This document shows, in pieces, positions 5,787 to 42,485 of a stretch of DNA of 64,000 nt. The DNA lies in NCBI GenBank assembly GCA_037200965.1, contig JBBCGK010000001.1, positions 128,001-192,000 of the forward strand, read 5' to 3'. This DNA is from a bacterium. Its GTDB lineage: Bacteria; Patescibacteriota; Minisyncoccia; Phycocordibacterales; Phycocordibacteraceae. Position 1 is the stretch's first letter; each line of letters opens with the position of its first letter. Below the pieces are notes generated by a model. It saw only the letters and a list, made by a program, of their open reading frames with translations. It was not told the DNA's origin and searched no databases. The position numbers were made by a program, and so were the translations under genes.

Positions 5787-5975
5787 ATGGATTGGAGTCC
5801 ATGCAAAAAGTGCGGAAGTCAGAATATACTGCTAGTTGAGCACGGGCTCAACCACCCCGAATTTTATGACGGCATAAGCGAGATAGAGTGCAAATCCTGC
5901 GGGGCCCGCATCGGCCGCTGGTCCGGAAGTGAGTTGGCGCCCGGGGAAGCCGGGCCTCGCTTTGGGAGCATATGA
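5787..5975 (+). CDS. small zinc-ribbon protein (CxxC...CxxC)
   Basis: CKKCGS...CKSCGA pair; stop overlaps the ATG of the downstream GT4 gene (ATGA coupling). Confidence 0.35.
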   Translation: MDWSPCKKCGSQNILLVEHGLNHPEFYDGISEIECKSCGARIGRWSGSELAPGEAGPRFGSI

Positions 5976-12157: not shown

Positions 12158-12428
12158 TTAGGTTAATCTTTGAAAGATTTGTAGATGTGCCACTCGCTAT
12201 CGGTATACTCGTCTGTGACCCGCTTACCTGAGTTAAGTAACCATTCGTGTTGGTATCTTTCCGTACCGGAGAAAGCGGTATTCCTTTAAATGCGAAAATT
12301 CCAGCCCGTACATACGAGCCGGAACAGGTCCGTTGCTCCCGGAGAGGTTCTTGAAAAATACGTTTTTCCCGCCAATTAAACAAGTGTTTGTATATTCGCG
12401 TTCAAAACAGGCAAAAGGGCTCGATACC

Positions 12429-22589: not shown

Positions 22590-22900
22590 TCCGCGGTAGC
22601 TCAATGGTAGAGCAGCTCCCTGTGGCAAACGCAGCTTCCAAAGGAAACTTTGGTCGAAGAACGAGGTGAATTCGGGGAACCCCGAGCGAGAAATCGCGGG
22701 CAATCCCGAGCCAAGTCCCGAATGTCGGGAAAGGTGTAGAGACTATCTCGCAAGAGAGTACTTGGAAAGACGGATTAATCTTTGTCTTTCCCGGGAAGCG
22801 CCTCGCACCCTTCGGGGTGATGATATAGTCCATCCCTGCCAGTAATGGAAGGAGCGATGTAAGGAGTTGGTTCCAGGTTCGAGTCCTGGCCGCGGAGCCA
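22590..22900 (+). tRNA. tRNA-Asn(GUU) interrupted by a group I intron
   Basis: Exon 1 (22590-22623): acceptor TCCGCGG, D-arm GCTC-AATGGTA-GAGC, anticodon stem GCTCC plus CUGU. Exon 2 (22860-22900): UAA-GGAGT, variable TGGTT, T-arm CCAGG-TTCGAGT-CCTGG, acceptor CCGCGGA, discriminator G, CCA. Spliced anticodon loop CUGUUAA gives anticodon GUU. Confidence 0.75.
22624..22859 (+). ncRNA. group I intron (~236 nt) in the tRNA anticodon loop
   Basis: 5' exon ends in U; intron ends in G. An IGS-like GCAG (22631-22634) can pair with exon CUGU, including a U-G wobble. Conserved core R-like GTAGAGACTA (~22735-22745) and S-like GATATAGTCC (~22822-22831). Confidence 0.7.
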
Positions 22901-24502
22901 GATAGGATTAACATCAGCGAAAGCTGGTGTTTTTCCTTTATTGACGGGCTTTTTTGGCGGTTCGAAAGTTCTTTTTTCGTCTGTTTTTTCTCCCATCATC
23001 TGCATGACACGGTCGGAGATGATTTTGAAGGCTTTATGGTATGAAATCTCCACTTTCTTGCCGTTTATCGTCGAGTTCGAAAATAACAGCGACATCAAAA
23101 GCTTCTTGTCGTCGACCATCTCGAGCGTGCTCCGGTTTACGTAAATCTTCCGCGCCTCCTTGGCCATCTGCAAGAAAGTCGATCCCATGTCGAAGTACTT
23201 GAGATTAGCGTTCTTGTGCTTATTGAGGCTATCCATCACTTCTTCCTGCTCGAGCTTGTACTGCGCGTACTTTTTCTGATAGAAGTCCTCGCTTATTTTG
23301 CCGTCGATCTTATCGTCATATATTTTGTCGAGCCGTTGCGTCGCCGTCTGATATCGTCGCTCCAGCTCGCCGGTTGCCTTTTCCCTGAATTCTATTTCCT
23401 CGCTATGGCTTTCCTTGAGTGCTTCCTGAACCCAGGTGAGCATATGCTCGATGGCCTCGTCATGCTTCGAGCTTAACTGCTCGATATTTTCCATCACTTG
23501 CTCGTCGACCTGCTCCTGCCGGACATATTCTTTCTGCGTGCAGTTTTTATAGTGATTGCAGTGGCCATACCAATGGCCTTTCTGTATCTCCCACGTTACG
23601 CGGCCCTTGCACTCCTCGCACCGAAACACGTTTTTGAAAAGCGAGTTGTGCTTGTTGTATCTCGGCGTGCCGTTGCTGTGCATGATGTCTTGGCACCGCA
23701 TGAATAATTCTTTGGTGATAAGCGGCTCATGTCCGCCCTGGGCGACTTTGCCGTTCCAGCGGTTCATGCCGTAGTAGAACGGATCGCCAAGAAGCTGATG
23801 CACGCGCGAGTGACTTACCTTGTTGCCTCCGCGCGAGCGCATGCCGAGCTTGTACATCTCATCGGCCAGTTTCTTGGTCGAGTGTATATTCGTGGCATAG
23901 AGTTCGAACATTCTTTTGACGATCGGTGCCTTATCCGGATCGAGCACGTGGATTTTGTGTCCCTTCTCGCCGACGGTTTTGTAGCCGAGCGGCGGCTTGC
24001 TCGGCAGCCAGCCTTGCGCGAGCTTTTCTTTCTGGCCTTTCTTCACGTTCTCGGAAAGGAGTCGGATGTAGTACTCGGCCGTGGCTACTTTGACGCGCCA
24101 CATAAACCACTCGTGCGACTTGGAGTCCTTGTGGAGCGTACAGCTCTCTTTGACGAGGTGGATGGTGTGCTTTTCATCGGCCAGTATCCACTCGTCGATG
24201 ACCGGCACGTCGGCAAAGTTGCGCGTGAGGCGGTCGGTCGTCTCGACGAAGATCGTGTTGATCTTCGTCTTGGTCACGTATTCGAGCATCTCGTGGAATA
24301 TCTTGCGCTGGATTTTGCCAGCCGCCGATTCCTGGATGGCGAATACCTTGACCATCTCGTAGCCGTTGCGATCGGCATAGTCGTGCAAGAGCTTTTCCTG
24401 CGCCGGAAGCGAGTAACCGGTATCCTCCTGATCCTTGGATGACACGCGGGCGTACCCCACGGCTCGCAATGGTTGATTTTCTTGATTCATTGTCATGGTC
24501 AT
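22775..24502 (-). CDS. large serine recombinase (phage/ICE-type integrase)
   Basis: AVGYARVSSKDQ catalytic Ser region, recombinase domain, Cys-rich zinc-ribbon (CEECKG...CNHYKNC), coiled-coil C-terminus. Track ORF starts at a GTG (24550); an ATG at 24502 is the more likely start. The 3' ~126 nt run antisense through tRNA exon 2 and the intron 3' end. Confidence 0.85.
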   Translation of the reverse strand: MTMTMNQENQPLRAVGYARVSSKDQEDTGYSLPAQEKLLHDYADRNGYEMVKVFAIQESAAGKIQRKIFHEMLEYVTKTKINTIFVETTDRLTRNFADVPVIDEWILADEKHTIHLVKESCTLHKDSKSHEWFMWRVKVATAEYYIRLLSENVKKGQKEKLAQGWLPSKPPLGYKTVGEKGHKIHVLDPDKAPIVKRMFELYATNIHSTKKLADEMYKLGMRSRGGNKVSHSRVHQLLGDPFYYGMNRWNGKVAQGGHEPLITKELFMRCQDIMHSNGTPRYNKHNSLFKNVFRCEECKGRVTWEIQKGHWYGHCNHYKNCTQKEYVRQEQVDEQVMENIEQLSSKHDEAIEHMLTWVQEALKESHSEEIEFREKATGELERRYQTATQRLDKIYDDKIDGKISEDFYQKKYAQYKLEQEEVMDSLNKHKNANLKYFDMGSTFLQMAKEARKIYVNRSTLEMVDDKKLLMSLLFSNSTINGKKVEISYHKAFKIISDRVMQMMGEKTDEKRTFEPPKKPVNKGKTPAFADVNPIWLRGQDSNLEPTPYIAPSITGRDGLYHHPEGCEALPGKDKD

Positions 24503-24546
24503 AATTGCTAATAATTTGTTGGTTCGAATTCGACGTTCGGTACCAG

Positions 24547-24596
24547 ACACACCATATGCCTATTCGTTTGCGCTGCTAAGCCCGAGTTACCCACAT
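24547..24596. repeat. copy A of an imperfect ~50-60-nt repeat (TATGCCTATTCG...AAGCC...GTTACCCACAT)
   Basis: Shares blocks CCTATGCCTATTCG and GTTACCCACAT with 35475..35534; same orientation; immediately upstream of the intact recombinase gene. Confidence 0.5.
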
Positions 24597-24708
24597 TCCA
24601 CCAGTCTTTTGCTCGAAACGTTGGGTTTTGTTGGCTTTTGTTGGGTATTTGCAGCATTTTCCGGTGGCTACTGGTGGGTTCCGGTGACTCAAAAACGGTT
24701 AAATAAGG

Positions 24709-25293
24709 TCAGTTGCGGTTAAATGACGACCGGCCTTTCATCGTCATTTTTGCTACCAGCTTGGCTTTCATGTCGTTGATCTTCTTGAGGTTCGCGCCGT
24801 TAACTTCTTTATAATTTTCTTTAATTTCTTTTGAACCCTTAGCTTCTCTATCTTCTCCGTGCGATGCGGTATGCGCCGCGTGCCGGCCGGCATTTCGTGC
24901 AGATCGGCCGCCATCCTGCGCCAGATGTAGGACGGAAAGCAAGGTGATGCTTCGTGGCTTGAACTTGGCATCCGCGCCACGCACTTTCGTGGTCACGATA
25001 AATGCCCACGCTTCGAGCGTGTCGAGACATTTCTTGATCGTGCGCCAGTCTTTGAGGCCACAGTAAAGCAAGAGCGTCCGGTTCGACGCCTCGATGGTTT
25101 GGCTCGCTTTGTTCGATGCGATCTCAGTCAGAGCGCAGTAGACATTCCGCAGATTGCGGTACGCATCATCGCTTACGCGCTTGTCGATCCATTCCTGTCG
25201 CATGTACCGCAAAGCCGGCTTGTCTTGATAGGCAAACGGAGCTTCGCGGTAGTCTCGGACCTTATGCTTTTGTTCGCTTTGGTTTGGTGTCAT
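24709..25293 (-). CDS. hypothetical protein of integrative element (possible wHTH replication/regulatory protein)
   Basis: Basic protein; wHTH-like segment ASNRTLLLYCGLKDWRTIKKCLDTLEAW. Confidence 0.4.
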   Translation of the reverse strand: MTPNQSEQKHKVRDYREAPFAYQDKPALRYMRQEWIDKRVSDDAYRNLRNVYCALTEIASNKASQTIEASNRTLLLYCGLKDWRTIKKCLDTLEAWAFIVTTKVRGADAKFKPRSITLLSVLHLAQDGGRSARNAGRHAAHTASHGEDREAKGSKEIKENYKEVNGANLKKINDMKAKLVAKMTMKGRSSFNRN

Positions 25294-25471
25294 ACGGTTC
25301 GATGAGCGTGCGGCCGCTCGTGATGTCCTCGAGGTAAAACCGCGACAGCGCGTCGTAGTACCTCACCAGATTGAAGGCGATGTCGTGCAGGTCTTGGTCG
25401 TTTACGTCCAAGCCAAAGTCATGCTTCAGGATCGCACGGAGCTTCTCCAGCGTTTCCGGTTTGATTTTCAC
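25262..25471 (-). CDS. hypothetical small protein
   Basis: 69-aa ORF; 3' end overlaps the next gene start. Confidence 0.3.
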   Translation of the reverse strand: MKIKPETLEKLRAILKHDFGLDVNDQDLHDIAFNLVRYYDALSRFYLEDITSGRTLIEPYDTKPKRTKA

Positions 25472-25476
25472 AGGTC

Positions 25477-25719
25477 TTAGTCCTCGGCATAAATCCGTAC
25501 TTTGACCTGTTTGAGCTGGTTGAAGAACGCCTGCGGTTCGACCGCAAGCTCGCGATTCCAGTATCGCTTCACCAGAGAATCCAGGTCAGGGCTCTTGCCG
25601 AAACAAAAGAGCACCTTGTGCGGATTTCCCCGATCCACGACCTCCAGAGAATCAGGAATGAATAATAAAAGCACCGCGACCAATGCCAGGTCGGCGGTTT
25701 TGTAATAATTGTTTTGCAT
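25477..25719 (-). CDS. hypothetical small protein
   Basis: 80-aa ORF in the same gene string as the recombinase. Confidence 0.3.
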   Translation of the reverse strand: MQNNYYKTADLALVAVLLLFIPDSLEVVDRGNPHKVLFCFGKSPDLDSLVKRYWNRELAVEPQAFFNQLKQVKVRIYAED

Positions 25720-25868
25720 GTGGCATTTTCATTGTCATTAACGTCCTCTCACACGCATTCATTGTGGCAATTTGGCATACGCTTCTGGAATACTGCGAGC
25801 GTGTAGTCAGACACGAAAAAAGCAGCCATTTTGCTGCTTGTCGCTCCCACTTATTAACTACATCAGAG

Positions 25869-26534
25869 CTACACCTCTTTTATTTTGTATTCCGGATTGA
25901 GTTTGTATCCGTTTACGGCGCGGCCAACGATAAAGCTGTCGATGCCGAGCGCGTAGCGCACCTTGCGGTTGATCATGAGCTTCGCGTTGTGGAGCGACTT
26001 GCGGTTCTTGCTTCCGGTCAATCCTACAAGCTCGTCCGTTGGCACATACCCCTTTCGTTCAAGAAGGACCCGTACGATTTTCTGCCGTTGCTTTTCCGTA
26101 CCCATCGAGTAGCAATGCTTAGCTTTCGGCTCGCGGTACAGGTCGCCATCTTTTGAAAAGTAAACGGTCTTTTTACTATCTGCCGGCTTGGTTCGCTTGC
26201 CGGCAAGGCCGTATGCCGCGCCTTCGGCCGTGAGCTTCGCCACGCTTGTTTCCAAGTCCGCGATTTTGCCAAGCGCAGCCAGATACGCTCGTGTCATTGC
26301 TTCTATGCTCCGGCTGTTTTGATTGAGCGCACCCACCAATGCTTGAATGGCCAGATCGTCGGTCTTTACCAGTTCGGCCGGCCGCTCGATGTCCGCAAAG
26401 TCCCTGAGCGCGGATCGCAGTTCGCCGGTAATCGCAGAGGTAGAAAAGCGATAAGCATTCGCCATACCGACAGACCGGTTCGTATTGAATTTGTACGTCT
26501 TGGCCAATGTGGCCTTTTTCATCTTCATAATCAT
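25869..26534 (-). CDS. hypothetical protein of integrative element
   Basis: 221-aa ORF; C-terminal wHTH-like region; divergent from the AbiE operon. Confidence 0.4.
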   Translation of the reverse strand: MIMKMKKATLAKTYKFNTNRSVGMANAYRFSTSAITGELRSALRDFADIERPAELVKTDDLAIQALVGALNQNSRSIEAMTRAYLAALGKIADLETSVAKLTAEGAAYGLAGKRTKPADSKKTVYFSKDGDLYREPKAKHCYSMGTEKQRQKIVRVLLERKGYVPTDELVGLTGSKNRKSLHNAKLMINRKVRYALGIDSFIVGRAVNGYKLNPEYKIKEV

Positions 26535-26636
26535 CTTTAAGCCGTATTGCTTATTCTGGATAAGCTACTTGTGCTTAAGCTTAGTATATCATATAATGCA
26601 CTGGAAGTTAGCTTTAAACTAACTATAGGTAAGTAT

Positions 26637-27254
26637 ATGGATAATAAACCGACAAAAGGTCAATATGTAGAGGTCTTATTGAGATCTCCCAAAACCGTCT
26701 TTTCAATCAAAGACGTGGCTTTGTTATGGGGAGAAGAAGCTGAAAATGCTGTTCGCGTCAGATTAAACAGCTACGTAAAAAGCGGTAAGTTGATCCGAGT
26801 ACATCGCGGCTTTTATGCTAAAGACAAGAATTACAACCGTTCTGAATTAGCGACTGCGATCTACACTCCCTCTTACATCAGCTTTGAGTCTGTTTTAACT
26901 CGTGCCGGTATCAACTTTCAATACTACGGCAATATTTTTGTTGCTTCATACGTGACCAGAGAGATCGAAGCTGATGGTCAAAAAATCTCTTTCATCCGCA
27001 TGAAAGATTATGTCTTAAGTAACACTGCCGGCATCGAGCATACGGAAGGTATTGCCACAGCAACTAAGGAGCGCGCTTTCTTGGACCGGATTTATGTCAG
27101 CAAAGACTATCATTTCGATAATTTGGATGCTTTGGATTGGGATAAAGTCTTTGAGATGTTACCTATCTACCACAACAAGCGAATGGAAAAGAAAGTAAAG
27201 ACCTATCTCGAGCACTATAAAAGCAACCAGCCCGATAAAGCGAAAAACGTATGA
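26637..27254 (+). CDS. AbiEi-family antitoxin/transcriptional regulator
   Basis: N-terminal wHTH and ...SGKLIRVHRGFYA... typical of AbiEi; stop overlaps the AbiEii start. Confidence 0.6.
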   Translation: MDNKPTKGQYVEVLLRSPKTVFSIKDVALLWGEEAENAVRVRLNSYVKSGKLIRVHRGFYAKDKNYNRSELATAIYTPSYISFESVLTRAGINFQYYGNIFVASYVTREIEADGQKISFIRMKDYVLSNTAGIEHTEGIATATKERAFLDRIYVSKDYHFDNLDALDWDKVFEMLPIYHNKRMEKKVKTYLEHYKSNQPDKAKNV

Positions 27255-28285
27255 CTTTAGATTACTCAAAGCACAAAGCAATATTGCTCCAAATTCTCAA
27301 GGATATTTATTCCGATACTTCGATCGCTCCTCACTTGGGTTTCAAAGGCGGGACGGCCGCGCTTTTATTCTACGGACTCAATCGTAACTCGGTAGACTTG
27401 GACTTCGATCTGTTGGACGAAAGCAAAGAGGCAGAGGTCTTTGAGAAGATTCAGAAAATCACTGCGGCCTATGGAACGATTACCGATTCCTACATTAAAA
27501 AGTTCAATCTCCTGAATGTTATCTCTTACGCACCTGGAGCACAGAAGATAAAAGTCGAAATCAATCGCCGGAACTTTGGCTCGCGCTATGAGCTTAAGAC
27601 CTTGCTTGGTATCTCCATGCTGGTCATGGTGGAAGCTGATACATACGCCCACAAATTGATGGCCATGTACGAGCGCGTCGGTAAGACGAGCCGTGATATT
27701 TTCGACGTGTACTATTTCGAAAAGAAAGGCTGGGATATCAATAAAACTATTGTTGAGGATCGTTCCGGACTGTCATTCAAGGACACCCTCGCCAAGTGCA
27801 TCGATTTGCTGGAAAAGATGGATAACAAGCACATCTTGGATGGCTTGGGTGAATTGCTGACAGATCCGCAAAAAGATTGGGCCCGCGCCAAGCTCAAAGA
27901 AGAGACTATTTTCTTGCTCAAAGTAAAAATGGAAGGCTTGGGCAAGATTGATACCCTGCCGCCATATACTTCGGCCGATGTTGAAGCTATACAAACCATA
28001 CTCAATGATAAGTTCTTTAAGAACACTCCTTTTGCATGCGAGAAATTGACGGTTAAAAAGGATAAAGTGTTTTTCGAAAAGAACAGCTCTGACGAGGATA
28101 GCTACGGGTACGACATTGAGTGCGTGCTTTTGCAGGATGGTAAGAAGGTAGAAGTCTCGATCGATCCGATAACAAACAAGGTCGGCGCAGATCAAGTTGC
28201 CCATCTCATAGCACATACCGTTTGGGCAAAGCTGGATCAATCGATGACCAGTCAGCTTTGGAAGAATTTTCCAACCAACCTATAA
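27251..28285 (+). CDS. AbiEii/AbiGii-family nucleotidyltransferase toxin (DUF1814)
   Basis: GFKGGTAALLFYGLNRNSVDLDFDL, the hallmark NTase motif of AbiEii. Confidence 0.7.
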   Translation: MTLDYSKHKAILLQILKDIYSDTSIAPHLGFKGGTAALLFYGLNRNSVDLDFDLLDESKEAEVFEKIQKITAAYGTITDSYIKKFNLLNVISYAPGAQKIKVEINRRNFGSRYELKTLLGISMLVMVEADTYAHKLMAMYERVGKTSRDIFDVYYFEKKGWDINKTIVEDRSGLSFKDTLAKCIDLLEKMDNKHILDGLGELLTDPQKDWARAKLKEETIFLLKVKMEGLGKIDTLPPYTSADVEAIQTILNDKFFKNTPFACEKLTVKKDKVFFEKNSSDEDSYGYDIECVLLQDGKKVEVSIDPITNKVGADQVAHLIAHTVWAKLDQSMTSQLWKNFPTNL

Positions 28286-28289
28286 ATTT

Positions 28290-29360
28290 ATGCCAAAGGA
28301 AATCGCCAAAAAGTCATTGAATAAGAACTTGCACAAGGCAAGCGCCGCGAAGAAAGATGAGTTTTATACTCAGATTGTTGATATTGAAAAAGAGTTGAAA
28401 CACTACAAAGATCAATTCCGTGGCAAGGTAGTGTATTGCAACTGCGATGATCCATTTGAGAGCAACTTCTTTAAATATTTCGCAGGAAATTTCAATGCAC
28501 TCGGACTGAAAAGACTTATTGCCACTAGTTACAAGCCGTCTCCTATAGCCAATACGCAATTAGGGCTATTTGGCGACATCAAGGCCATAAACACGCCCAA
28601 GGGCCGTCCTAAGGTAACCGCGAACAAATTCATTATCAATGAAGTTGATGATATAGACGGCGATGGCGCATTTGACTTGCGTGATATTGCCGAGCAACTC
28701 AAGGCTAACAAAAACAATGAATGGGCTCCATTAGAGGGTGAAGGAGATTTTAGAAGTGAAGAAAGCATAGAACTGCTGAAGCAAGCTGATATTGTAGTAA
28801 CAAATCCGCCTTTTTCCTTGTTCCGCGAGTATGTCGCACAGCTAGTAGAACACAACAAAAAGTTTTTGATTCTAGGTGACCAAAATGCAGTAACCTATAA
28901 AGAAACCTTTGGCTTCATCAAAGAAAATAAACTATGGCATGGCTACGACAATGGTGGCACAAAATGGTTTCAGGTTCCTGACGATTATGACATTGAGACT
29001 GAATCAAGAATAAAAGTTGAGAATGGTATAAAGTTTTTCAGCATGGGTAGAATTGTGTGGTATACAAACCTCGAGACCACAAAACGTCACGAGAAAATAG
29101 TCTTGTATAAGAAATATACACCAGAGGAATTCCCTAAATATGATAATTCCGATGTTATAAACATCGATAAAGTCTCCGATATTCCGATGGATTATGACGG
29201 AGTGATGGGTGTACCAATTACTTTTGTTGATAAATATAGTCCAGCACAGTTTGAAATTTTGGGTATCGCTAATTCCGCAAGATGGATTGGTTACGAATGT
29301 TTTACCTTGATTAAAGGTAGGAAAATATATAATCGAATTTTAATTAAGCGTAAAAAATAA
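28290..29360 (+). CDS. putative N6-adenine DNA methyltransferase
   Basis: NPPF (VVTNPPFSLF) motif IV and upstream DEFYTQ; 5 nt after AbiEii and 1 nt before the next gene. Confidence 0.55.
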   Translation: MPKEIAKKSLNKNLHKASAAKKDEFYTQIVDIEKELKHYKDQFRGKVVYCNCDDPFESNFFKYFAGNFNALGLKRLIATSYKPSPIANTQLGLFGDIKAINTPKGRPKVTANKFIINEVDDIDGDGAFDLRDIAEQLKANKNNEWAPLEGEGDFRSEESIELLKQADIVVTNPPFSLFREYVAQLVEHNKKFLILGDQNAVTYKETFGFIKENKLWHGYDNGGTKWFQVPDDYDIETESRIKVENGIKFFSMGRIVWYTNLETTKRHEKIVLYKKYTPEEFPKYDNSDVINIDKVSDIPMDYDGVMGVPITFVDKYSPAQFEILGIANSARWIGYECFTLIKGRKIYNRILIKRKK

Positions 29361-29361
29361 T

Positions 29362-30465
29362 ATGAAAATTGATCTAAACAAAATTACTGTGCGGGAAGTC
29401 GTGAATGGCTACAAAGATGGCTCTGAGGAGGGCGTTGTTGCGTATGGTGGAAAGCTTGATGTGCGCCCGAAGTATCAGCGCGAATTCGTATACAAAGACA
29501 AACAGCGCGATGCGGTTATTGATACCGTTAGAAAAGGCTTCCCTCTCAACGTGATGTATTGGGTGAAAACCGATGACGGAAATTTTGAAGTACTTGACGG
29601 ACAGCAGAGGACAATCAGTCTAGGCCAGTATGTAAATGGCGACTTCTCGGTGGATTTCAATGGTCGCCTCGCTATGTTCCATAACCTTACCAAAGAGGAG
29701 CAGGAACAAATTCTGAACTACGAATTGATGATTTATTTCTGCGAGGGAAACGATAAAGAGAAACTTGATTGGTTTAAGACAATCAATATTGCCGGAGAGC
29801 GTTTAACCGACCAAGAGCTACGCAACGCTGTATATACCGGCCCGTGGCTTTCTGATGCAAAGCTAAAATTCAGCAAATCAAACTGTGCGGCGTATTTGTT
29901 GGCAAACGATGGCGGACAGTTAATTAGCGGCTCGCCGATCCGGCAAGAGTATTTGGAAACCGCACTCTCGTGGATAAATAACGATGAAGTGGCCAATTAC
30001 ATGGCCAAACATCAACACGACGAGAATGCAGAGGAATTGTGGGCTTACTTCCAAAGCGTTATTGCATGGGTACGAAAGACGTTCCCAAATTACCGCAAGG
30101 AAATGACGAGTGTGAATTGGGGTGAGCTATACAACGAATTCAAAGACAAGAAATTGAATGAGACTAAGCTCGAAGCCGAAGTTAAGAAGTTGATGCAAGA
30201 CGAGGACGTGACGAAAAAGTCCGGTATCTACCCTTATGTCTTAACGGGACAGGAGCGAGAGCTTTCTATCCGCGCTTTTACCGACAAGATGAAGCGTGAA
30301 GCATACGAGCGGCAAGATGGCATCTGCCCGTTTTGCAAGAAAAAATATGACATCTCAGAAATGGAGGCCGATCATATTGCTCCATGGCATGAAGGTGGAA
30401 AGACTACGGCCGAAAATTGTCAGATGCTCTGCAAACAAGACAACCGGACGAAGTCTGGAAAATAA
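29362..30465 (+). CDS. DUF262 (ParB-like DGQQR NTPase/nuclease) plus C-terminal HNH endonuclease protein (GmrSD-like)
   Basis: DGQQR motif (LDGQQRT) and HNH motif DHIAPWHEGGKTTAENCQMLCKQDN. Confidence 0.75.
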   Translation: MKIDLNKITVREVVNGYKDGSEEGVVAYGGKLDVRPKYQREFVYKDKQRDAVIDTVRKGFPLNVMYWVKTDDGNFEVLDGQQRTISLGQYVNGDFSVDFNGRLAMFHNLTKEEQEQILNYELMIYFCEGNDKEKLDWFKTINIAGERLTDQELRNAVYTGPWLSDAKLKFSKSNCAAYLLANDGGQLISGSPIRQEYLETALSWINNDEVANYMAKHQHDENAEELWAYFQSVIAWVRKTFPNYRKEMTSVNWGELYNEFKDKKLNETKLEAEVKKLMQDEDVTKKSGIYPYVLTGQERELSIRAFTDKMKREAYERQDGICPFCKKKYDISEMEADHIAPWHEGGKTTAENCQMLCKQDNRTKSGK

Positions 30466-30482
30466 GGTTATGAAAGAGTCCC

Positions 30483-32966
30483 ATGAAAATCATCCGAGCT
30501 ATACAATTTTTCTTTCGTAGGATTTCATGGAGACAGAGAACCTCTCCCTCCTTTGCTTTTGAAGTGGACAAAAAACCGAACTGGCTCGTCTATGCTTGGG
30601 GTGTCTTTGCCGGCTTCTTTTACAGCATCTTTCAGCGACGACGCGAGTCATTAAGGGTACTTTACCGCAATCAGGAACGCCGGAAGACTGAGTACACCAT
30701 ACCGATGCAGATCGTGCGGCAGTCTATGGGTACGATCTTGGTTCTAATACTGGCACTGGTCGGAGTAACCCTCGCTGATTGGGGCGTCGAGAAGCTCGCA
30801 AATCTACTCTCTCAGGTGCAGGCCGGCTGGTTTATAGCTTTCGCCGCACACTTTAATTTCTTTACGATTCCCGACAAAGAATTCTTTAAGCTCGTGCTTG
30901 AGATATCTATTGGCGCGATCTCCGCCATCCTCGGACTCTTATTTGCTTTATACGCGGTCGGTCTCCAGCTCACGACCGATAAGTACTCGTCTAAGGTGTC
31001 CGATTACGTCAATCAGGAAACCGTCGGCAATTTCTTTTTCAAACTCCTCGTCTTTACTGATATCTTTGCGATTGCCGTCTTGCTCCGTATTCAGATTCTC
31101 GCGCTTCCGTCACCGATCAGCTTCATTGCCGTTGTCGTTCTAGTAGTTATCTGCTTGCTTGGCATCATTGTTTTCAAGAATCACTACATTCTCACCATCA
31201 AGCCGAAGAACCTTTTTGAGAGGTTGCAGTCCGACATAAAGACGAGCATCCGGCTTGCCTCGGATCGGACCCGGTATTCCTATAAAAGCTGGAGCATTGT
31301 GCAGACTTCGCGCGTGCGAACGCAGGATCATCTCTCAATACTCAAAACTCTCTTTGAAGATCTCTGGCACGCCGAAAATTGGAACGACGTGATTTACACG
31401 CCGATGGTGCTTGCAAACTTGATCACCGACTACGCCAAGCGAAAGAAATATATCGACAGAGAGCGTGGCTGGTGGTTCCCGCAAACGCAGGTGGAGGTCA
31501 AGGCAAACAGCATGTCTACGCTCACCCTGAAGCTGAATTTCGAGCTTCAGGGCAAAGGGCCTCTGCGTATAGGTAGCCCAGACTATTTGTGGTTCGAGAA
31601 CGGTATTTTCGACATTCTCAAAGCGGTAGAGTCTCGTGTTGGAACTGCGCCGCAGGATACTCATCTGCTCAAATACGTCATTGATTTTTATCAGACCGCA
31701 CTTGCTGGCGACTACGAAAAAGATGAGTACAGCCGCTATCAGAAAGCAGTCGCGGGTCTATATGAGAATCAGGAGACCGACGCTTTCGAGAAATATCTCG
31801 ATGGCTTCTTTGCTTTGTATGAGAGAGTGCAAACCGACGACGAGCTGGGCGCGTATCTCAACGCTTACTTTGCGATCGGGCTGACTCTTATCGACGGCTT
31901 CGATTACGCCAAGTATCAGGAGGTAATAAAATCGCTCATCGGCGCAGACGGCCAGCTCACTCGCACCCGTGAGGAGCTTGCTCGGCTCGATCTGCCCGGA
32001 GTGTTTTATAACCAAATCCTCGACTACTGGGATCGCCTCGATCTTGAAGTCCAGTGTGAGGGACGCGTTATAACGCCGCAAGACCGGCTCGAAAAGGAAA
32101 CGCTCGACGATGCCCATGCAAAGGAAAAGCAGTACTTCGCCAAATTCTTTGAGAAGCTGATTACGCACCACAACACCGTTCTCCAAGACCTCTACCAGAA
32201 AGGAAAACATAAGGAGCTTGCGATGTTCATCAAGGCTCGCTTCGAGTGGATCAGTCGCTTGCTTTATATCAACAAGGTTGCTCTGGCCGACGAGTATGGC
32301 GCGAAGATCGCCGGTGCTGGCGTTTACCTTCCATTTCTGCCAAAGCAGATACTTCTCGACTCGGAGTTTTGGGAAGAACTTGAAAAGACTCTATTCCCAT
32401 CAGTCATTGAAAATTGCCCAACGCTTTTTAAGGTGTTGTCCGGATTGCTCACGCTCATGTTGCCAGTCATCAATGCCGACGAGAAAAATGTCGACAACAT
32501 CATGTATCGCAATCGCCTCGGTCTCATTCTTGGCGGATTCGTATACCTCGTCTGCGAATTCAGGCAGGATTACAGCCTGATGATCGAGTACGTGCAAACG
32601 ATTGAAGTTGCGTACCAGCCAGGCCAGTTCGTCAAAGCAATGGAGGTACTCTCGAAGCCGAAGGAAGTCGGAGGTCTCGACCTCACGCTCAAGCTCATAA
32701 ACTGGGAGCTTACTCGCTACCATCACTGGTTCGGCGAAATCCTCGGCCAGATATCGGAGCTTCCTAAGACCTACGATAACGTCCGTGTCTATTCCGGCTT
32801 GCAAGAGGTCGCAGACCATCCGAGCAAGTTCATCCGTGAGTTGAGCTACCGGCCGTACCAGCCGGAGGAAGAATGCGCGGAGGCATTTGTCGAGTGGGCA
32901 AAGAAGCGAGATGCTATCCGACAATTGGTCGAAGTGCTTAAGAAAGTTCAAGAGAAAAAGATATGA
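30483..32966 (+). CDS. large (827 aa) membrane-anchored protein of unknown function
   Basis: ~4 TM helices in residues ~80-230, then ~600-aa soluble region with no recognisable motif; low GC. Confidence 0.5.
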   Translation: MKIIRAIQFFFRRISWRQRTSPSFAFEVDKKPNWLVYAWGVFAGFFYSIFQRRRESLRVLYRNQERRKTEYTIPMQIVRQSMGTILVLILALVGVTLADWGVEKLANLLSQVQAGWFIAFAAHFNFFTIPDKEFFKLVLEISIGAISAILGLLFALYAVGLQLTTDKYSSKVSDYVNQETVGNFFFKLLVFTDIFAIAVLLRIQILALPSPISFIAVVVLVVICLLGIIVFKNHYILTIKPKNLFERLQSDIKTSIRLASDRTRYSYKSWSIVQTSRVRTQDHLSILKTLFEDLWHAENWNDVIYTPMVLANLITDYAKRKKYIDRERGWWFPQTQVEVKANSMSTLTLKLNFELQGKGPLRIGSPDYLWFENGIFDILKAVESRVGTAPQDTHLLKYVIDFYQTALAGDYEKDEYSRYQKAVAGLYENQETDAFEKYLDGFFALYERVQTDDELGAYLNAYFAIGLTLIDGFDYAKYQEVIKSLIGADGQLTRTREELARLDLPGVFYNQILDYWDRLDLEVQCEGRVITPQDRLEKETLDDAHAKEKQYFAKFFEKLITHHNTVLQDLYQKGKHKELAMFIKARFEWISRLLYINKVALADEYGAKIAGAGVYLPFLPKQILLDSEFWEELEKTLFPSVIENCPTLFKVLSGLLTLMLPVINADEKNVDNIMYRNRLGLILGGFVYLVCEFRQDYSLMIEYVQTIEVAYQPGQFVKAMEVLSKPKEVGGLDLTLKLINWELTRYHHWFGEILGQISELPKTYDNVRVYSGLQEVADHPSKFIRELSYRPYQPEEECAEAFVEWAKKRDAIRQLVEVLKKVQEKKI

Positions 32967-34066
32967 GACGACGCGCTTACAAACAAAGAGTGAAAGGCTA
33001 TGTGTTCGATGATCCGTTCCTCGGCTACATTCAAGGCCGCGACCGGCTAGAGAAGGCGTCATGGAACGCAATGGAACTAAGCAACGAGACCGACTCTGTA
33101 CGGTACTCGCTCTTTCCGTTGCGCGATATACCGGTGGCGGATCGTCCCGGCTATGTGACTCACGAACGCAATTACTTCAGCATCGAGTGCGATGATCCAG
33201 TCTTGAAAAAAGACCTCGAGATGTATTTCACCGACGAGCATTCGTTCTATCGGGATGGCCTGTACGGTCAGGGCGATGTGCTAGGAGGCTTTTTGGAGAG
33301 CATCGCGCACGAGCTGTTTGTGGTCGGCGATTCATTCCGCATGATCGAATGGGAGGAGGTCGATATCAAAGGCCGGAAGTATCAATTTCCAGTCGACTTT
33401 GAATATCTCAGGAACGAGACGATGAAAGTGCGCCGCAAGGGAGGGTTGATCGTAGGTTATCGGCAAAAGTACAGCCTCTTTACCTATCTCAAGGAGAAGC
33501 GATTCAAGGGATACGAGGATAAAGAGAAGCCGCGATCGTTTGAGTTTGAAAAAGAGGAGGTTGTGTACTGCAAGTATCCGTTTGCTAAAAAGTCGCCGAC
33601 GGCGCAGAGCATCAAATACCTTAAGCCAATCAAGAAGTTCTGGCAGTTCGGCATTGATCAATCGAAGAGTGGTGTCGAGGTAGAAAATCATTATCTGCCG
33701 CTTGAGCGAGCGCGGTACACCACCTATTCGCGAGAGAAACGGAAGTACGATATCGCTCGTGGAAAGATACGCACCATTTTCAATTACTTGATGGAAACGA
33801 ACGGGCCTAAGCTCACGCAGTATTACGATATATACACCGTGATCCGCTACAAAAAATTCCTCAATGACTTTAGGGATTATTTGGTACGAGAATTCAACGA
33901 GCAGGTGCTGGCGATCGTGGCAAAAAGGAATGGCTTTACTTCCGTCCCTAAACTCGTCTATAGTGGCTTTCTCTCTAATGCCGAACTGGATGCCGCACTA
34001 CAGGGTTACACAGACGGCACGATCACGTTTGATCAGATTGTTCAGCAAATAGTAAAAAAGTCTTAA
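32963..34066 (+). CDS. hypothetical protein (367 aa), translationally coupled
   Basis: ATGA overlap with the upstream gene; no recognisable motif. Confidence 0.45.
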   Translation: MRRRAYKQRVKGYVFDDPFLGYIQGRDRLEKASWNAMELSNETDSVRYSLFPLRDIPVADRPGYVTHERNYFSIECDDPVLKKDLEMYFTDEHSFYRDGLYGQGDVLGGFLESIAHELFVVGDSFRMIEWEEVDIKGRKYQFPVDFEYLRNETMKVRRKGGLIVGYRQKYSLFTYLKEKRFKGYEDKEKPRSFEFEKEEVVYCKYPFAKKSPTAQSIKYLKPIKKFWQFGIDQSKSGVEVENHYLPLERARYTTYSREKRKYDIARGKIRTIFNYLMETNGPKLTQYYDIYTVIRYKKFLNDFRDYLVREFNEQVLAIVAKRNGFTSVPKLVYSGFLSNAELDAALQGYTDGTITFDQIVQQIVKKS

Positions 34067-34072
34067 AAAGAT

Positions 34073-34666
34073 ATGGGAGAAAAAGATAAACAAATTCTAA
34101 AAGATTCCGCGTTGGTCATTGCCGACCAGATAGCGTCCGCATTGCCGGGATTAAATATTGCATGGGGTTTAAGCAAGGCATTGTATGGTGCTGGTCTAAA
34201 ACTTCGTGAACAAAGAGCATTGGAATGGATTGAAATGGTTAGAGATAATCCCTCGGCATTTACTGAAACAATTATGCAAGATGCGAAATTCCAAGACGGA
34301 TTTGTGTACGCGTTGGAGCGTTATATCAGAGAGAAAAACGATAACAAAAGAAAAGCGATGCGCTCCGTATTTCTTGGGTTTGCGCTATCTCCGAATCAGG
34401 ACACTTTTGAGCTAGAGAGGATGTACCATGTATTAGGTATTCTTAGTGCAGAGGATATGATCGTTTTGAAGGATGTCGATTTTACACGAACCGATTTTCA
34501 TCAAGTGTATGAGCAGACTACCGACAAAAATGAGAACGTCTACAATTTGGTGAATGCCGGAATCTTGATGTCTGACTATTCATCTCGCATTGGCCCCATA
34601 GCCGCGCCATTTATAAAAGTAACTGCGTTTGGGAAAAGTTTTGTCGGATTCTTAAAATCAACATGA
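34073..34666 (+). CDS. hypothetical protein (197 aa)
   Basis: 6-nt gap after the upstream gene; stop overlaps the start of the DUF2726 gene. Confidence 0.4.
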   Translation: MGEKDKQILKDSALVIADQIASALPGLNIAWGLSKALYGAGLKLREQRALEWIEMVRDNPSAFTETIMQDAKFQDGFVYALERYIREKNDNKRKAMRSVFLGFALSPNQDTFELERMYHVLGILSAEDMIVLKDVDFTRTDFHQVYEQTTDKNENVYNLVNAGILMSDYSSRIGPIAAPFIKVTAFGKSFVGFLKST

Positions 34667-35175
34667 CAATCTTTTATATAATTATAGGCATCATTATAGT
34701 CATCGCAGTAGCACTCGCAATTTCCCGTGGAGGTTTTGCTGACGTGGCGGAGAAAGCTAAGTATCGCTATAACCGCAAGAATTTCTTCCTTACTCGAGCA
34801 GAGCACGAATGCTATGACGCTCTCGTTGCGGCAGTCGGCGCGGAGTATCGCATTTTCGCACAGGTGCATTTGCCAACACTGGTCGATCACACGGTTCGGG
34901 GGCAGGATTGGCGCGCGGCTCTGGCTCACATCAATCGGAAGTCTGTTGACTTCGTGCTATGCGATAAGGCGTATCTCTCTCCAAAGCTTGCTATTGAGCT
35001 TGATGATAAGTCCCATGAGCGACCCGATCGGCAAGAGCGCGATCGCGAAGTCGAGCGGATTCTGCGCGAAGCCGCCGTGCCGCTTTTGAGGCTAGAGAAT
35101 CATGGCCATTTTGCTCCTGACGAACTAAAAAGATTGATCGAGAACGCTCTGACACCGTCTACTCCAACAACTTAA
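34663..35175 (+). CDS. DUF2726 (NERD/PD-(D/E)xK-like nuclease fold) protein with N-terminal TM helix
   Basis: FLTRAEHECYDAL...RKSVDFVLCDK...AIELDDKSH, characteristic of DUF2726. GC content rises sharply relative to the upstream genes. Confidence 0.6.
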   Translation: MTIFYIIIGIIIVIAVALAISRGGFADVAEKAKYRYNRKNFFLTRAEHECYDALVAAVGAEYRIFAQVHLPTLVDHTVRGQDWRAALAHINRKSVDFVLCDKAYLSPKLAIELDDKSHERPDRQERDREVERILREAAVPLLRLENHGHFAPDELKRLIENALTPSTPTT

Positions 35176-35470
35176 AACGGCGCAGTTCTTTCTGCGCCGT
35201 TTCTATGTCCTCGAGGACTTTGAGATAGATTCGCTTTGTTTTCTTTGATTTCGGATTGCGCTCGGCAAAGAGGACGTCGTCATCCTCGACGAAGCCGGCG
35301 AGCGAGATGTACGCGCCCGCGAGATGTCTCATGCGATCTTTGAGCGCCGCCTTCAGTTTGGCTTTCGGCTCCGGAAGCAAAGAGAGCGGATTGAGCATGC
35401 CTTTCCGGTATTTGAGTCGTATATCTTTCGCAGCGCGGATAGCTGCGTCGATGTCCTCGGTATCTTCCAT
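35159..35470 (-). CDS. hypothetical small protein
   Basis: 103-aa ORF convergent with the DUF2726 gene; the 60-nt repeat lies in its upstream region. Confidence 0.3.
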   Translation of the reverse strand: MEDTEDIDAAIRAAKDIRLKYRKGMLNPLSLLPEPKAKLKAALKDRMRHLAGAYISLAGFVEDDDVLFAERNPKSKKTKRIYLKVLEDIETAQKELRRFKLLE

Positions 35471-39329: not shown

Positions 39330-39647
39330 ATGCAAAACTGCATCATCATCCACGGCTGCCCCTCGAACGTCGAGAAGGCGATGAATCCCGAGACTCGGAC
39401 GCATGATAAGCATTGGATTCCATGGGTTAAGAACACGCTTACAAAATTCGGAATTCCGACCGAGGCTCCGCTCATGCCCGAACCGTGGGAGCCGTCATAC
39501 GAGAAATTCAAGGCAGAGTTGCGCCCGCTCCACTACCCTCTAATCGCGAGCCGCCTCTGCGGCAAGATGCCCAGCGAGCGTAGTGATGAAGGTCTTGAGA
39601 CTGGTGAGCTCGCTCATGTCCGAGTAGTCGCCGGTGTCCTTGGCTGA
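39330..39647 (+). pseudogene. truncated RBBP9/YdeN-like serine-hydrolase N-terminal fragment
   Basis: MQNCIIIHGCPS...HWIPWVKNTLTK... resembles the N-terminus of RBBP9/YdeN-family alpha/beta hydrolases. The nucleophile motif is absent or degenerate, and the frame runs into the convergent REase gene. Confidence 0.35.
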
Positions 39648-40274
39648 CTGCGGCGAGAGCATGATGCACGCCGACGTGTAAAGCTGTTCCTGCACGAGCT
39701 TTTTGCAGAGGATGTTGTAGCGATCGGCATAGGATGCGCCTTTGAATTCCGGAAGCAATGGGAAGTGCGGCGAATTATCCGTCACTGGCGAGCGCGAGCC
39801 CGGCGCGTCTTCGAGGAGCATGAGCCAGCCGACGAATGGCTTCGGTTGTTCCCCGAACGCTCCTTCCCGGTACGCGGTCCACAGGTCGTGCGCGGTCCCG
39901 ATTGCTTCTTCTATGCGATTATTGAAATTATTGCCGAACGAGCCGACCTGCGACTTGAATTCGAGCGCGGCGACGAGACGGCCTTCGCTGAGTATGAGGA
40001 AATCCCATTGCTTAGTTGGTCTGAAGAAGCCCGGTAGGGTGACGAGACGCCCGCTATGAATGACCGTCGCATCTGTAAGGCCATTTGCTTCGGCAAGATC
40101 TGCCATCAGCGTGGCGAAGCCATCCATGTTCTTACCCGCAGTGACTGCGCCGCGGGTTCCTTGGTCTACAGTTCCGGATTCCTCCTGTTGCCGGACCGCA
40201 ACACTGCGATTGCCCCAGAACAGTTCGACTGCCTGTTTAGCACGCTTCTCGTATTGCGCGAGGTCTATGGCCAT
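39540..40274 (-). CDS. type II restriction endonuclease, PD-(D/E)xK fold (possibly XhoI/PaeR7I-like)
   Basis: [20 protein letters not shown] gives D...E-x-K. Sits 5 nt downstream of a gamma-class N6A MTase in the same orientation. Confidence 0.5.
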
Positions 40275-40279
40275 ACGTT

Positions 40280-41986
40280 TTATGCCTTGATGGTAGCACG
40301 CTCGGATGGAGAGAGAGAAAACAAGGCGGATACGGCTTCGTCGCGGGCTTCAGAGTCATCACTGCCCGCTGCCGCGCGAAGCGCCTGCTGCAGATCCTTG
40401 GAGACATCGCTCCACCGCGGCAACCGGATACGCCGCAGATACTGTGCCTGAAACCGGAGACAGTTCCCGTGCATGCGCGTCGAGTAGGTCTCGATGAATA
40501 CGCGCGCGATGCCAGAGAGCAAGACGGCACGGAGCGCTTGAAGATCCCATTCGTCGGAGGTGATGTAGTAAAGATTGTGATGAGGATACAGCTTGCCCTC
40601 GTCGTAGACGATATGGGCATCGCCCTTGATATCTGGGATCAGGAGTTTCGGCTTCTGCACGAGCTCCGGATAGATACGGTCGATCGTGCGGTACCAAGCG
40701 CTCGGGTTCTTCTTGGAGACGTGCCGGTTCCTGATCGCCACTTCGTGCTGTCCGAGGTATGCGCGCAGCCGGGGATACTTCTCAAGCGAGACCGGCTTCC
40801 CGTCATTCCCGAATGGATTCACGACGCCCAGTCCGCGCCATGCTACCGTACCCGTCTGAATATCCTTGGTCATTACGAGCGGAAGTTTGCACTCGGCCTC
40901 GACATCGAGCGTATCGAAGGGCGCGATGAACACATCGTCTGCCCCCGTCGCAACGCCGATACCCACCTTGCATCCCGTTTCCTCCAGCGTTGGGAAATCA
41001 CTCTCAAGGCGGCGAATGAGCGCGAGTGTGTCCGACTCCTCAAGCGTCCATGGGTCGCCGCCGGTGATGGTCGTTACTTTTACGGACTCATGGTCGGCCA
41101 ATGCGCCTCGCACGAGCGCGCGGGCCAGATCCTCTAGCGCAGATGCCTCAATCTCCGGGCGCTTCGCCACATAGGTCGGACCGGCCGACTCGCGGGCGAT
41201 TACGGTGATTGCCGGATATGCGATCACTTCCGAATGGAAGGCTGGGGTACCGACCATGTCGACGTATGTCCGCATGTGGAATCGCTTCGCGACAAGTTCG
41301 CGGAGGGGACCTCCGTAGCGATTCTTCATCCAGCGGTCAGCGCAGATAAAACCGAGCGTGCCGCCCTCATCGAGGAGCTTCAGCGAGTATTCGATAAAAG
41401 GGATAAAAATATCTGCTCGATCGTAAATCGTCTCGTACCGGCGACGGTACTCGGCCATCAGCACATTGGGTACCATCTCTTGCCTGATGTACGGCGGATT
41501 TCCGACAACATGAGTAAAGGAGTGCCCGAATGGCGTGAGCAGGAAGTCGCCTTGGACGAGCCAAGCCCCAAGGATTTCTTCGCTTTGATCGATAGTTAGT
41601 CCGTTCTGGAGGAGAATCGCTCGCACTTCCTTCCTCGTCTTATCAAATGACCCCATGTGGAGCTCCACCCCGCGGATACTGTCTCTCAAGAGATCTGCAC
41701 TGGGCTTTATGTTCCTAGTCTTGAGCGAGGACATGAGCCGCTTCACCGCTGGTATGAGGAAATCTCCATGTCCGAACGACGGTTCGAGAAGACGTGCCGC
41801 GTACAGTTCATTGGAAGGCACATAACCGACGAGGTCGAGTATAAAATCCACCACTTCCGACCGCGTGAAAATGGCCCCGCGGTCGTCGGTTCCTGCTGCT
41901 GCAAACTCCTCTATGGCAGACGCGACTGGAGAAAGGCCGGGGAGGAATTCCTGCGCGAGCTGTCCTTTTAGCGTGCCAACTCTCAT
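40280..41986 (-). CDS. N6-adenine DNA methyltransferase, gamma class (Eco57I/TaqI-like)
   Basis: Motif [13 protein letters not shown]; N-terminal AdoMet region [11 protein letters not shown]. Start placed at MRVGTLKG (ATG 41986), preceded by an AT-rich stretch. Confidence 0.8.
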
Positions 41987-42143
41987 GTGTTTAATAATAC
42001 CATTCCCGGGAGTGAGAGAGCGATTTCGAGGTATTGAACCATTACGAAGGACTTGACACAAGTATCTACTTATGATAGAGTCTGTCCTGGTAGTAGATTC
42101 CATTCCGGCATCTCCCCAGCCACGAACCTTACAGGAGGCTTCC

Positions 42144-42485
42144 ATGGCACGTTCAATCATCCTCGAGTCCGACCCCGAAGCACGCGTTGGTTTCAACGCG
42201 CAGGAAGGAGCGGGACACGAGAAGACCGAATCCCGCGTCGTCATCGACATCAGCGGTTACAAGCTGGTGCATGACACGGAAACGGAAGGAGGCCTGCATG
42301 TCGTGCAGCTCTACCTCACCGTTCCTCAAATGGCACAGCTTGTGCGGATGTTTTTCTTGGAGATTGCTAAGGAAAACATCTACGCACAGCTCCTTCGTCG
42401 GCTCCTCCGGCAACGGTGGAAGGTCATGACGAATGGTGCCGCCAAGCACATGGGTTGGATGCCGCGATACGATCAAGGCGTCTGA
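42144..42485 (+). CDS. hypothetical protein
   Basis: AGGAGG RBS 6-7 nt upstream of the ATG at 42144; followed by a canonical terminator. Confidence 0.45.

Follow-up and report, generated by a model that had tools for sequence, protein, structure and literature searches.

A widespread cassette of EcoRI-family methyltransferase and DUF262-HNH nuclease genes, and its exchangeable AbiE neighbour, in an integrative element of a Phycocordibacteraceae bacterium

In Type III (Mod/Res, for example EcoP15I) and Type I restriction-modification (R-M) systems a conserved nuclease subunit that depends on nucleoside triphosphates (NTPs) works with methylases whose recognition segments can be swapped, and in the LlaJI-type systems, made of four genes, a McrBC-like GTPase nuclease is used with methyltransferases (MTases) against unmethylated sites. 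GmrSD, BrxU and SspE carry an N-terminal ParB/Srx-fold DUF262 domain with a DGQQR motif followed by a C-terminal His-Me-finger nuclease. Here we have analysed a window of 64,000 nucleotides from a bacterium of the family Phycocordibacteraceae (Patescibacteriota, Minisyncoccia; GenBank assembly GCA_037200965.1, contig JBBCGK010000001.1, positions 128,001 to 192,000 of the forward strand), in which genes for an AbiEi/AbiEii pair, an EcoRI-family N6-adenine DNA MTase and a DUF262-HNH nuclease follow one another. Our preferred reading, to which we give a probability of about 0.7, is that they form two independent modules: the AbiE pair would occupy a cargo slot of an integrative element, and the MTase and nuclease genes would be the fixed R-M cassette of that element. 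As annotation the locus is ordinary, as both an AbiE pair and an R-M cassette of this kind are recognised by defence-finding software. The point of interest is the comparative pattern, in which the nuclease is steady across bacterial and archaeal phyla while the recognition-like modules of the methylase are reshuffled, together with the mechanistic hypothesis that we derive from it.

The four genes open a packed run of eight open reading frames (ORFs) on the + strand (26637-35175 of the window; Table 1). Their junctions are, in order, a 4-nt overlap, a 4-nt spacer, so that the MTase start lies 5 nt past the AbiEii stop, and a 1-nt spacer at which the sequence reads 'TAA T ATG'. The G+C content drops from ~58% in the flanks to 41-50% between 26 and 35 kb, and scans of the locus for promoters and terminators gave background levels. 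The identities of the four ORFs are firm, their hidden Markov model (HMM) matches lying far beyond chance. The MTase matches PF13651 (EcoRI_methylase, 4.4e-133) and the PADLOC model MTase_II (2.3e-118), and its NPPF motif is invariant across 50 homologues. An earlier reading of these genes made from the letters alone (the sequence-only reading) had placed an NPPF-motif N6-adenine MTase five nucleotides past AbiEii and, one nucleotide after it, a DGQQR domain fused to an HNH nuclease, and both placements were confirmed by coordinates, translations and Pfam matches.

The nuclease combines PF03235 (GmrSD_N, 1.1e-18) with PF01844 (HNH, 1.6e-11), and the PADLOC model REase_II (PDLC03418, 'Type II restriction enzyme') spans its full length (1e-146). 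Residues P36, Y38, Q39 and R40 (PxYQR) and D79-R83 (DGQQR) are invariant over two nuclease clades that are ~40% identical to each other; as this NTP-binding signature has been kept over such a distance, the protein has very probably retained nucleotide binding. The invariant residues of the HNH domain are the four cysteines of the zinc site (C322, C325, C353, and C357) together with D337, H338, N352, and N361. Sequence searches of the Protein Data Bank (PDB) with the nuclease returned HNH domains only, apart from one marginal match to BrxU; with the family profile the HNH protein 4h9d was found at 1e-5.

Linkage and spread of the cassette

The locus was compared with a set holding one genome per species, in which 534 stretches encode a relative of the nuclease. 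We analysed the best 80 of these 534, whose nucleases are 68-85% identical to that of the window and whose hosts include many Patescibacteria lineages, DPANN and other archaea, Gammaproteobacteria, Bacteroidota, Planctomycetota, Clostridia, and others. In 75 of these 80 loci the nuclease gene is preceded, on its own strand, by an EcoRI-family MTase gene. Four of the other five are on contigs that end 0-113 nt upstream of the nuclease gene, and in the fifth (L054) a disrupted RhuM gene occupies the 1238 nt available. The MTase is also present, next to the nuclease, in all 25 IMG/VR viral contigs that carry the latter, and hence in 100 of the 100 testable relatives with enough upstream DNA (75 genomes and 25 viral contigs). 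Where both ORFs could be delimited (71 genome loci), the gap between them is at most 35 nt in 58 cases, and the commonest junctions are a 1-nt gap, as in the window, or a 4-nt overlap. The same pair is plasmid-borne in cultured Aeromonas, Variovorax, Gordonia, lactobacilli, and staphylococcal relatives, and it also occurs in the Flavobacterium phage laban6-1. Database relatives of the nuclease number more than 8000 (527 clusters at 50% identity, E <= 1e-30), the best 120 listed being 80-88% identical.

The MTase and DUF262-HNH genes are, therefore, a fixed and very mobile R-M cassette that is horizontally widespread. The sequence-only reading had considered the pairing of an MTase with a GmrSD-like enzyme unusual, which turned out to be wrong: few arrangements of this nuclease are commoner, and both partners are already covered in PADLOC-DB, as MTase_II and REase_II. 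Its suggestion that the two genes are an R-M-like unit was borne out, since the two are linked wherever a related locus could be tested and also occur together on plasmids and in a phage, and the co-occurrence in other genomes, which it had proposed as a check, held in the 75 genome loci and the 25 viral contigs. In the literature we found no paper characterising a cassette of EcoRI-family MTase and DUF262-HNH nuclease; published general statements describe the fusion of DUF262/COG1479 domains to HNH domains, their association with R-M loci, and ParB-HNH fusions. The PADLOC papers gave no indication of whether the model PDLC03418 rests on a characterised enzyme.

The same linkage bears on the possibility that the protein is a Type IV, modification-dependent nuclease like GmrSD or BrxU and that the MTase accompanies it without a functional tie, for instance to shield the element from the R-M systems of the host. 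The DUF262 domain with DGQQR is common to GmrSD, BrxU, and SspE, and a Type IV nuclease would trivially explain why the protein is independent of the MTase modules described below. However, near-obligate, translationally coupled linkage in ~100 loci across phyla, plasmids, and phages is unexpected for independent genes, a fusion of the nuclease to an MTase-derived domain exists, and the resemblance to GmrSD ends with the first domain: the Pfam scan gave no DUF1524 and no domain other than DUF262 and HNH, a Cys4 HNH stands in the place of DUF1524, the protein has 367 aa compared to 587 aa in the BrxU chain 7p9k, and the similarity of the family profile to the latter reaches only E = 0.049. We consider a Type IV role very improbable. 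Because of the HNH domain, the short length and the constant MTase linkage, the nuclease is not, as judged by its sequence, a member of the GmrSD family, and the label 'GmrSD-like' that had been given to it holds for the N-terminal DUF262 domain and fails for the nuclease domain. Its target would presumably be unmodified DNA, a polarity opposite to that of GmrSD and BrxU.

Returning to the preferred reading, its safest form, which we consider likely, is that the cassette acts as methylation-protected restriction and, at the same time, as an addiction module of the element. With similar confidence we expect that methylation protects against the nuclease, the constant linkage pointing to a block of cleavage by cognate methylation. 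In such a scheme the EcoRI-family MTase would N6-methylate adenine in host DNA, the ParB/Srx-fold (DGQQR), NTP-binding HNH nuclease would attack DNA without the methyl mark, and the cassette would both exclude foreign DNA and stabilise the element that carries it.

Module exchange in the methyltransferase

The two partners differ in how they vary. In a set of 68 MTase/nuclease pairs, for which the types of modules B and C are clusters at the thresholds used, the nuclease is better conserved than the MTase in 98.8% of comparisons (mean 75% vs 60%). Mean identity is 73% for the MTase core and 40% for modules A, B, and C together, compared to 75% for the nuclease. Module B falls into 10 mutually unalignable types and module C into 31, and the combinations are mixed: one C type accompanies three different B types, and there are also B types that accompany more than one C type. 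Nuclease identity hardly depends on module type. A permutation test on mean nuclease identity gave p = 0.05 for B, and we ascribe the small effect seen for C to a handful of cassettes that were shared recently. None of the columns of the nuclease shows covariation with B type (maximum adjusted mutual information 0.126; null 0.117 +/- 0.028) or with C type (0.16; null 0.148 +/- 0.03). The nuclease is 70-93% identical across cassette loci, and in five pairs of loci (L005/L010, L051/L062, L017/L024, L011/L015, and L072/L077) nucleases that are 91-93% identical accompany MTases differing in both B and C, the few differences between these nucleases being scattered along the sequence. The converse case is also found, since the MTases of the window and of L086 are 91% identical and their nucleases 76%. 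In another locus (L023, 3997-7263) two tandem EcoRI-family MTases, 63% identical and differing in B and C, lie upstream of one nuclease; either they could methylate the two strands of an asymmetric site, or they could differ in specificity.

This pattern has to be confronted with a classical Type II system, in which the DUF262-HNH protein would read a fixed site alone and cut it if unmethylated, the variable MTase segments being decoration or all the variants covering the same site. The full-length matches to the PADLOC models REase_II and MTase_II and the separation of the two genes fit such a system, genuine M.EcoRI, from the same family, works in this way, and the MTase core and the restriction endonuclease diverge at similar, correlated rates (Spearman 0.60). 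We nevertheless regard it as unlikely: modules that are non-homologous, variable in length and recombined are a hallmark of specificity swapping, matched independent recognition does not easily fit a nuclease that stays 93% identical while the module sets differ and in which no column covaries, and invariant NTP-binding DGQQR and PxYQR motifs are not a Type II feature.

It is possible, if short of probable, that the MTase targets or licenses the nuclease, reading the sequence through its modules B and C, and that the nuclease lacks a matching sequence specificity of its own. The DUF262 domain would then act as an NTP-dependent switch, in a Type III/Type I-like logic without a helicase motor. 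We favour this form of the R-M cassette because the module pattern resembles the evolution of specificity in Type I and Type III systems, with a conserved nuclease and a swappable methylase recognition domain. The likeness is that of a conserved NTP-binding nuclease beside a methylase with segments swapped between alleles; by their Pfam domains, however, the cassette proteins have neither a superfamily 2 (SF2) helicase motor nor a PD-(D/E)XK nuclease, and the putative NTPase is ParB/Srx-like. The MTase is of the EcoRI family and presumably monomeric, unlike those of Type III and Type I, and a complex between MTase and nuclease is putative. With LlaJI the cassette would share the recruitment of Type IV-style NTP-dependent machinery into methylation-protected R-M, although the NTPase and nuclease folds of LlaJI are unrelated to those found here and four genes are used.

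The EcoRI system itself offers a reference for these modules. Genuine M.EcoRI (L115, 1138-2981, on the E. coli plasmid NZ_OW967970.1, beside R.EcoRI) is 45.5% identical to the window MTase over its full length, and likewise belongs to PF13651, with the same conserved blocks and NPPF. Its B and C modules are recognisable variants of cassette types: the module B of M.EcoRI, which recognises GAATTC, is of the type of L067 and of the second MTase of L023 (L023_M2), and its module C is of the type of L030, L014, and L073. From these alignments M.EcoRI appears as one mosaic of the same module pool as the cassette MTases, and, as it carries cassette-type B and C, the modules would vary within the family where specificity matters. 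The two systems differ in the nuclease, which is the PD-(D/E)XK protein R.EcoRI instead of DUF262-HNH, and in gene order, R then M in EcoRI and M then R here. The MTases that share modules with M.EcoRI are partnered by DUF262-HNH nucleases, whereas M.EcoRI pairs with a different nuclease fold.

A natural fusion of the two partners was also found. The protein P0388 (L114, 6001-8067) is a 688-aa in-frame fusion of a degenerate EcoRI-family MTase domain, with FPSF in place of NPPF, GDG in place of DDP and DEFYTQ missing, to a complete DUF262-HNH nuclease. It is present on two contigs; its host has 33% G+C and uses code 4 (UGA = Trp), with seven in-frame TGA codons at conserved Trp positions, and the 9 kb available did not reveal any EcoRI-family MTase besides the fused domain. 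Together with the module pattern, the fusion suggests a Type III-like logic in which the methylase gives specificity to an NTP-binding nuclease.

Several observations weigh against these interpretations. The 80 genome loci were picked by similarity of the restriction endonuclease, which inflates its apparent conservation. The role of modules B and C as candidate recognition elements that read the target sequence is deduced from the pattern of variation only, and the MTase gave no match in a sequence search of the PDB, its family being one without a solved structure. The AlphaFold2 (AF2) model of the nuclease is poor (mean predicted local distance difference test, pLDDT, 51; predicted TM-score, pTM, 0.29; 53 sequences of two clades). 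M.EcoRI, which is partnered by a PD-(D/E)XK nuclease, works independently as a Type II MTase, and so a nuclease partner is not intrinsically required by the family. The fusion comes from a single lineage among the 150 best representatives. Finally, a gene is inserted between MTase and nuclease in 13 of the 71 delimited loci, the inserted genes being Fic, DUF2130, T5orf172, an SMC-like ATPase, or a second EcoRI-family MTase.

A still more far-reaching view, which we regard as doubtful, would make the cassette a distinct mechanistic R-M class now filed as 'Type II', with a sequence-blind nuclease, built of a compact ParB/Srx-fold NTP switch and an HNH domain, steered or licensed by a freely recombining two-module methylase, and jointly one of the most widely exchanged defence/addiction modules of candidate phyla radiation (CPR) bacteria, DPANN archaea, plasmids, and phages. 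If cleavage were indeed directed by the methylase, the cassette would be a minimal two-gene R-M system of programmable specificity in which a ParB-type NTP switch replaces the helicase motor. The ParB/Srx fold would thereby gain a role beyond those known, the wide spread of the cassette among small-genome symbionts would be explained, and nucleases that can be retargeted by swapping methylase modules could follow.

Some further features of the MTase were recorded. Residues 118-134 (28641-28691), 'EVDDIDGDGAFDLRDIA', resemble an EF-hand/dockerin-type calcium-binding loop (DxDxDGxIxxxD), which is retained by most homologues with a window-type A module and absent from genuine M.EcoRI. The AF2 model of the MTase has a pLDDT of 72 overall and below 50 for aa 82-109. 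A Foldseek search of the PDB with this model returned generic Rossmann methyltransferases and E1 enzymes only, which did not inform the placement of modules B and C. Inference of the recognition site from palindrome avoidance was dropped, as the MTases are heterogeneous.

The carrier element and the AbiE pair

The cassette of the window is carried by an element with a large serine recombinase and a conserved backbone, of which we have found a sibling in L084. The two share the recombinase (92% identical), orf194 (79%), orf69 (94%), the DUF5659 gene (100%), and orf221 (84%), as well as the MTase (97%), the nuclease (93%), and orf103 (91%). They differ in two slots: in L084, AbiEi/AbiEii is replaced by a Fic gene, and the block from DUF2254 to DUF2726 by a single 1323-aa ORF. 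In a more distant relative (L086/L088), where DUF5659 is also found, the first slot holds AAA_14/DUF4143 and DUF7695 genes and the second a DUF2779 gene and a 753-aa ORF. These loci (22775-35470 in the window, L084, and L086/L088) represent a family of serine-recombinase elements in which backbone and MTase/nuclease core are kept and two cargo slots vary, and the window locus exemplifies such a fixed R-M core with exchangeable slots for defence cargo. Apart from DUF5659, the backbone ORFs gave no match in PHROGs or Pfam.

The AbiE pair lies beside the cassette in one of the 80 genome loci, the Saccharibacteria metagenome-assembled genome locus L001, and in none of the 25 viral loci. As the sibling elements carry Fic or AAA_14/DUF4143 and DUF7695 in its place and it is so rarely found there, these comparisons indicate that AbiE is exchangeable cargo, an independent neighbour of the R-M unit, and that the stacking is incidental. 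Of the 'stacked defense genes' described earlier, the four genes and their placement stand, and their adjacency to AbiE has lost its significance. A four-gene composite defence system, with AbiEi, AbiEii, MTase, and nuclease acting together, might have been expected from four ORFs on the same strand with overlaps or gaps of no more than 4 nt, and from the same gene order in L001. It was rejected on comparative grounds (L001, L084, and L086/L088) and appears to us most improbable, because 79 of the 80 genome loci and all 25 viral loci lack the pair, because sibling elements swap it and keep the R-M pair, and because the Pfam and PADLOC descriptions give AbiE pairs as autonomous two-gene systems.

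The preferred reading thus leaves AbiEi/AbiEii as a module in its own right, and by HMM it qualifies as a bona fide AbiE pair. The genes are bicistronic with the antitoxin gene first and overlap by 4 nt (ATGA, 27251-27254); the ATG start of AbiEi lies within a longer, TTG-started ORF beginning at 26547. AbiEii matches PF08843 (56.5 bits, gathering threshold (GA) 22.5; 5e-15) and the PADLOC model AbiEii (2.3e-77, over aa 5-227), and its translation has the nucleotidyltransferase (NTase) motifs hGG and DLDFD (GFKGGTAALLF...DLDFDL) and a K..A..R..D..D block. The PADLOC match of AbiEi covers 183 of 186 profile positions (2.8e-58), although the protein stays below threshold in Pfam (AbiEi_4, 22.3 bits vs GA 25) and in NCBIfam (35.9 vs a cutoff of 150). 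The motifs that the sequence-only reading had named in AbiEi (RGFY) and AbiEii were found in the translations, and its assignment to AbiE is upheld, by Pfam for AbiEii and by the full-length PADLOC match for AbiEi. The pair is predicted to be a type IV toxin-antitoxin/abortive-infection pair, with toxicity and neutralisation expected from the families. It shares with described AbiE systems the overlapping bicistron, the NTase motifs, and the full-length AbiEi match, and differs from them in the weak Pfam and NCBIfam scores of AbiEi and in AbiEii, where the NTase core (aa 1-227) is followed by an extension of ~115 aa (aa 228-344; 27932-28285). The extension lies past the PADLOC and Pfam core and gave no Pfam or PHROG family match, and the 76%-identical AbiEii homologue of L001, which lacks it, aligns to aa 1-228 only.

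With regard to the site of the element, a tRNA-Asn(GUU) gene (22590-22900, +) has its anticodon loop split by a 236-nt group I intron (22624-22859; Rfam RF00028, 64.1 bits, GA 50). ARAGORN reported no tRNA in the window, but once the intron is taken out in silico a perfect 75-nt tRNA-Asn results. Since the serine recombinase gene on the opposite strand overlaps, at its 3' end, with the 3' exon and with the end of the intron, the tRNA gene is probably the integration site of the element. A direct-repeat search for the element ends found no att-like repeats.

Table 1. Coordinates of the cassette, the AbiE pair, and the carrier element in the window
Feature	Position	Strand	Basis
Large serine recombinase of carrier integrative element	22775-24550	-	Resolvase + Recombinase + Zn_ribbon_recom; 92% identical in L084
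Conserved element backbone: orf194, orf69, DUF5659, orf221	24709-26534	-	79-100% identical, same order in L084
AbiEi antitoxin/regulator, 205 aa	26637-27254	+	PADLOC AbiEi PDLC02255, 2.8e-58; 77% identical homologue in L001
AbiEii nucleotidyltransferase toxin (predicted), 344 aa	27251-28285	+	PF08843 + PADLOC AbiEii
EcoRI-family N6-adenine DNA MTase, 356 aa; modification and proposed specificity subunit	28290-29360	+	PF13651
MTase variable module A, aa 82-151, including EF-hand-like DxDxDG loop	28533-28742	+	Alignments
MTase catalytic motif IV, NPPF	28803-28814	+	Translation
MTase hypervariable module B, aa 217-256, type B7; candidate target-recognition element	28938-29057	+	Alignments
MTase hypervariable module C, aa 326-345, type C26; candidate target-recognition element	29265-29324	+	Alignments
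DUF262(ParB/Srx)-HNH nuclease, 367 aa; restriction subunit	29362-30465	+	PF03235 + PF01844 + PADLOC
DUF262/GmrSD_N NTP-binding domain, aa 34-158	29461-29835	+	Pfam; DGQQR at 29596-29610, PxYQR upstream
HNH nuclease domain, Cys4 zinc site, aa 322-365	30325-30456	+	PF01844; CPFC...DH...N...CQMLC...N

Other genes in the window

Directly 3' of the nuclease gene, four packed genes (30483-35175, +; gaps of 17, -4, 6, and -4 nt) encode an 827-aa DUF2254 membrane protein, two family-less ORFs of 367 and 197 aa, and a DUF2726 nuclease-like protein. The block was found in none of the 80 related genome loci, and orf367 and orf197 had no match in PHROGs or Pfam; it may be another, undescribed defence module. 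A second R-M system is encoded at 39540-42250 (-), with an XhoI-family endonuclease (PF04555, 9.7e-89) and an Eco57I/TaqI_C-type MTase. The low G+C region at 5972-13541 (33-41%) is an ordinary surface-polysaccharide cluster, with GT4 and GT2 glycosyltransferases, a polysaccharide flippase-like protein, and a PMT_2-like membrane protein.

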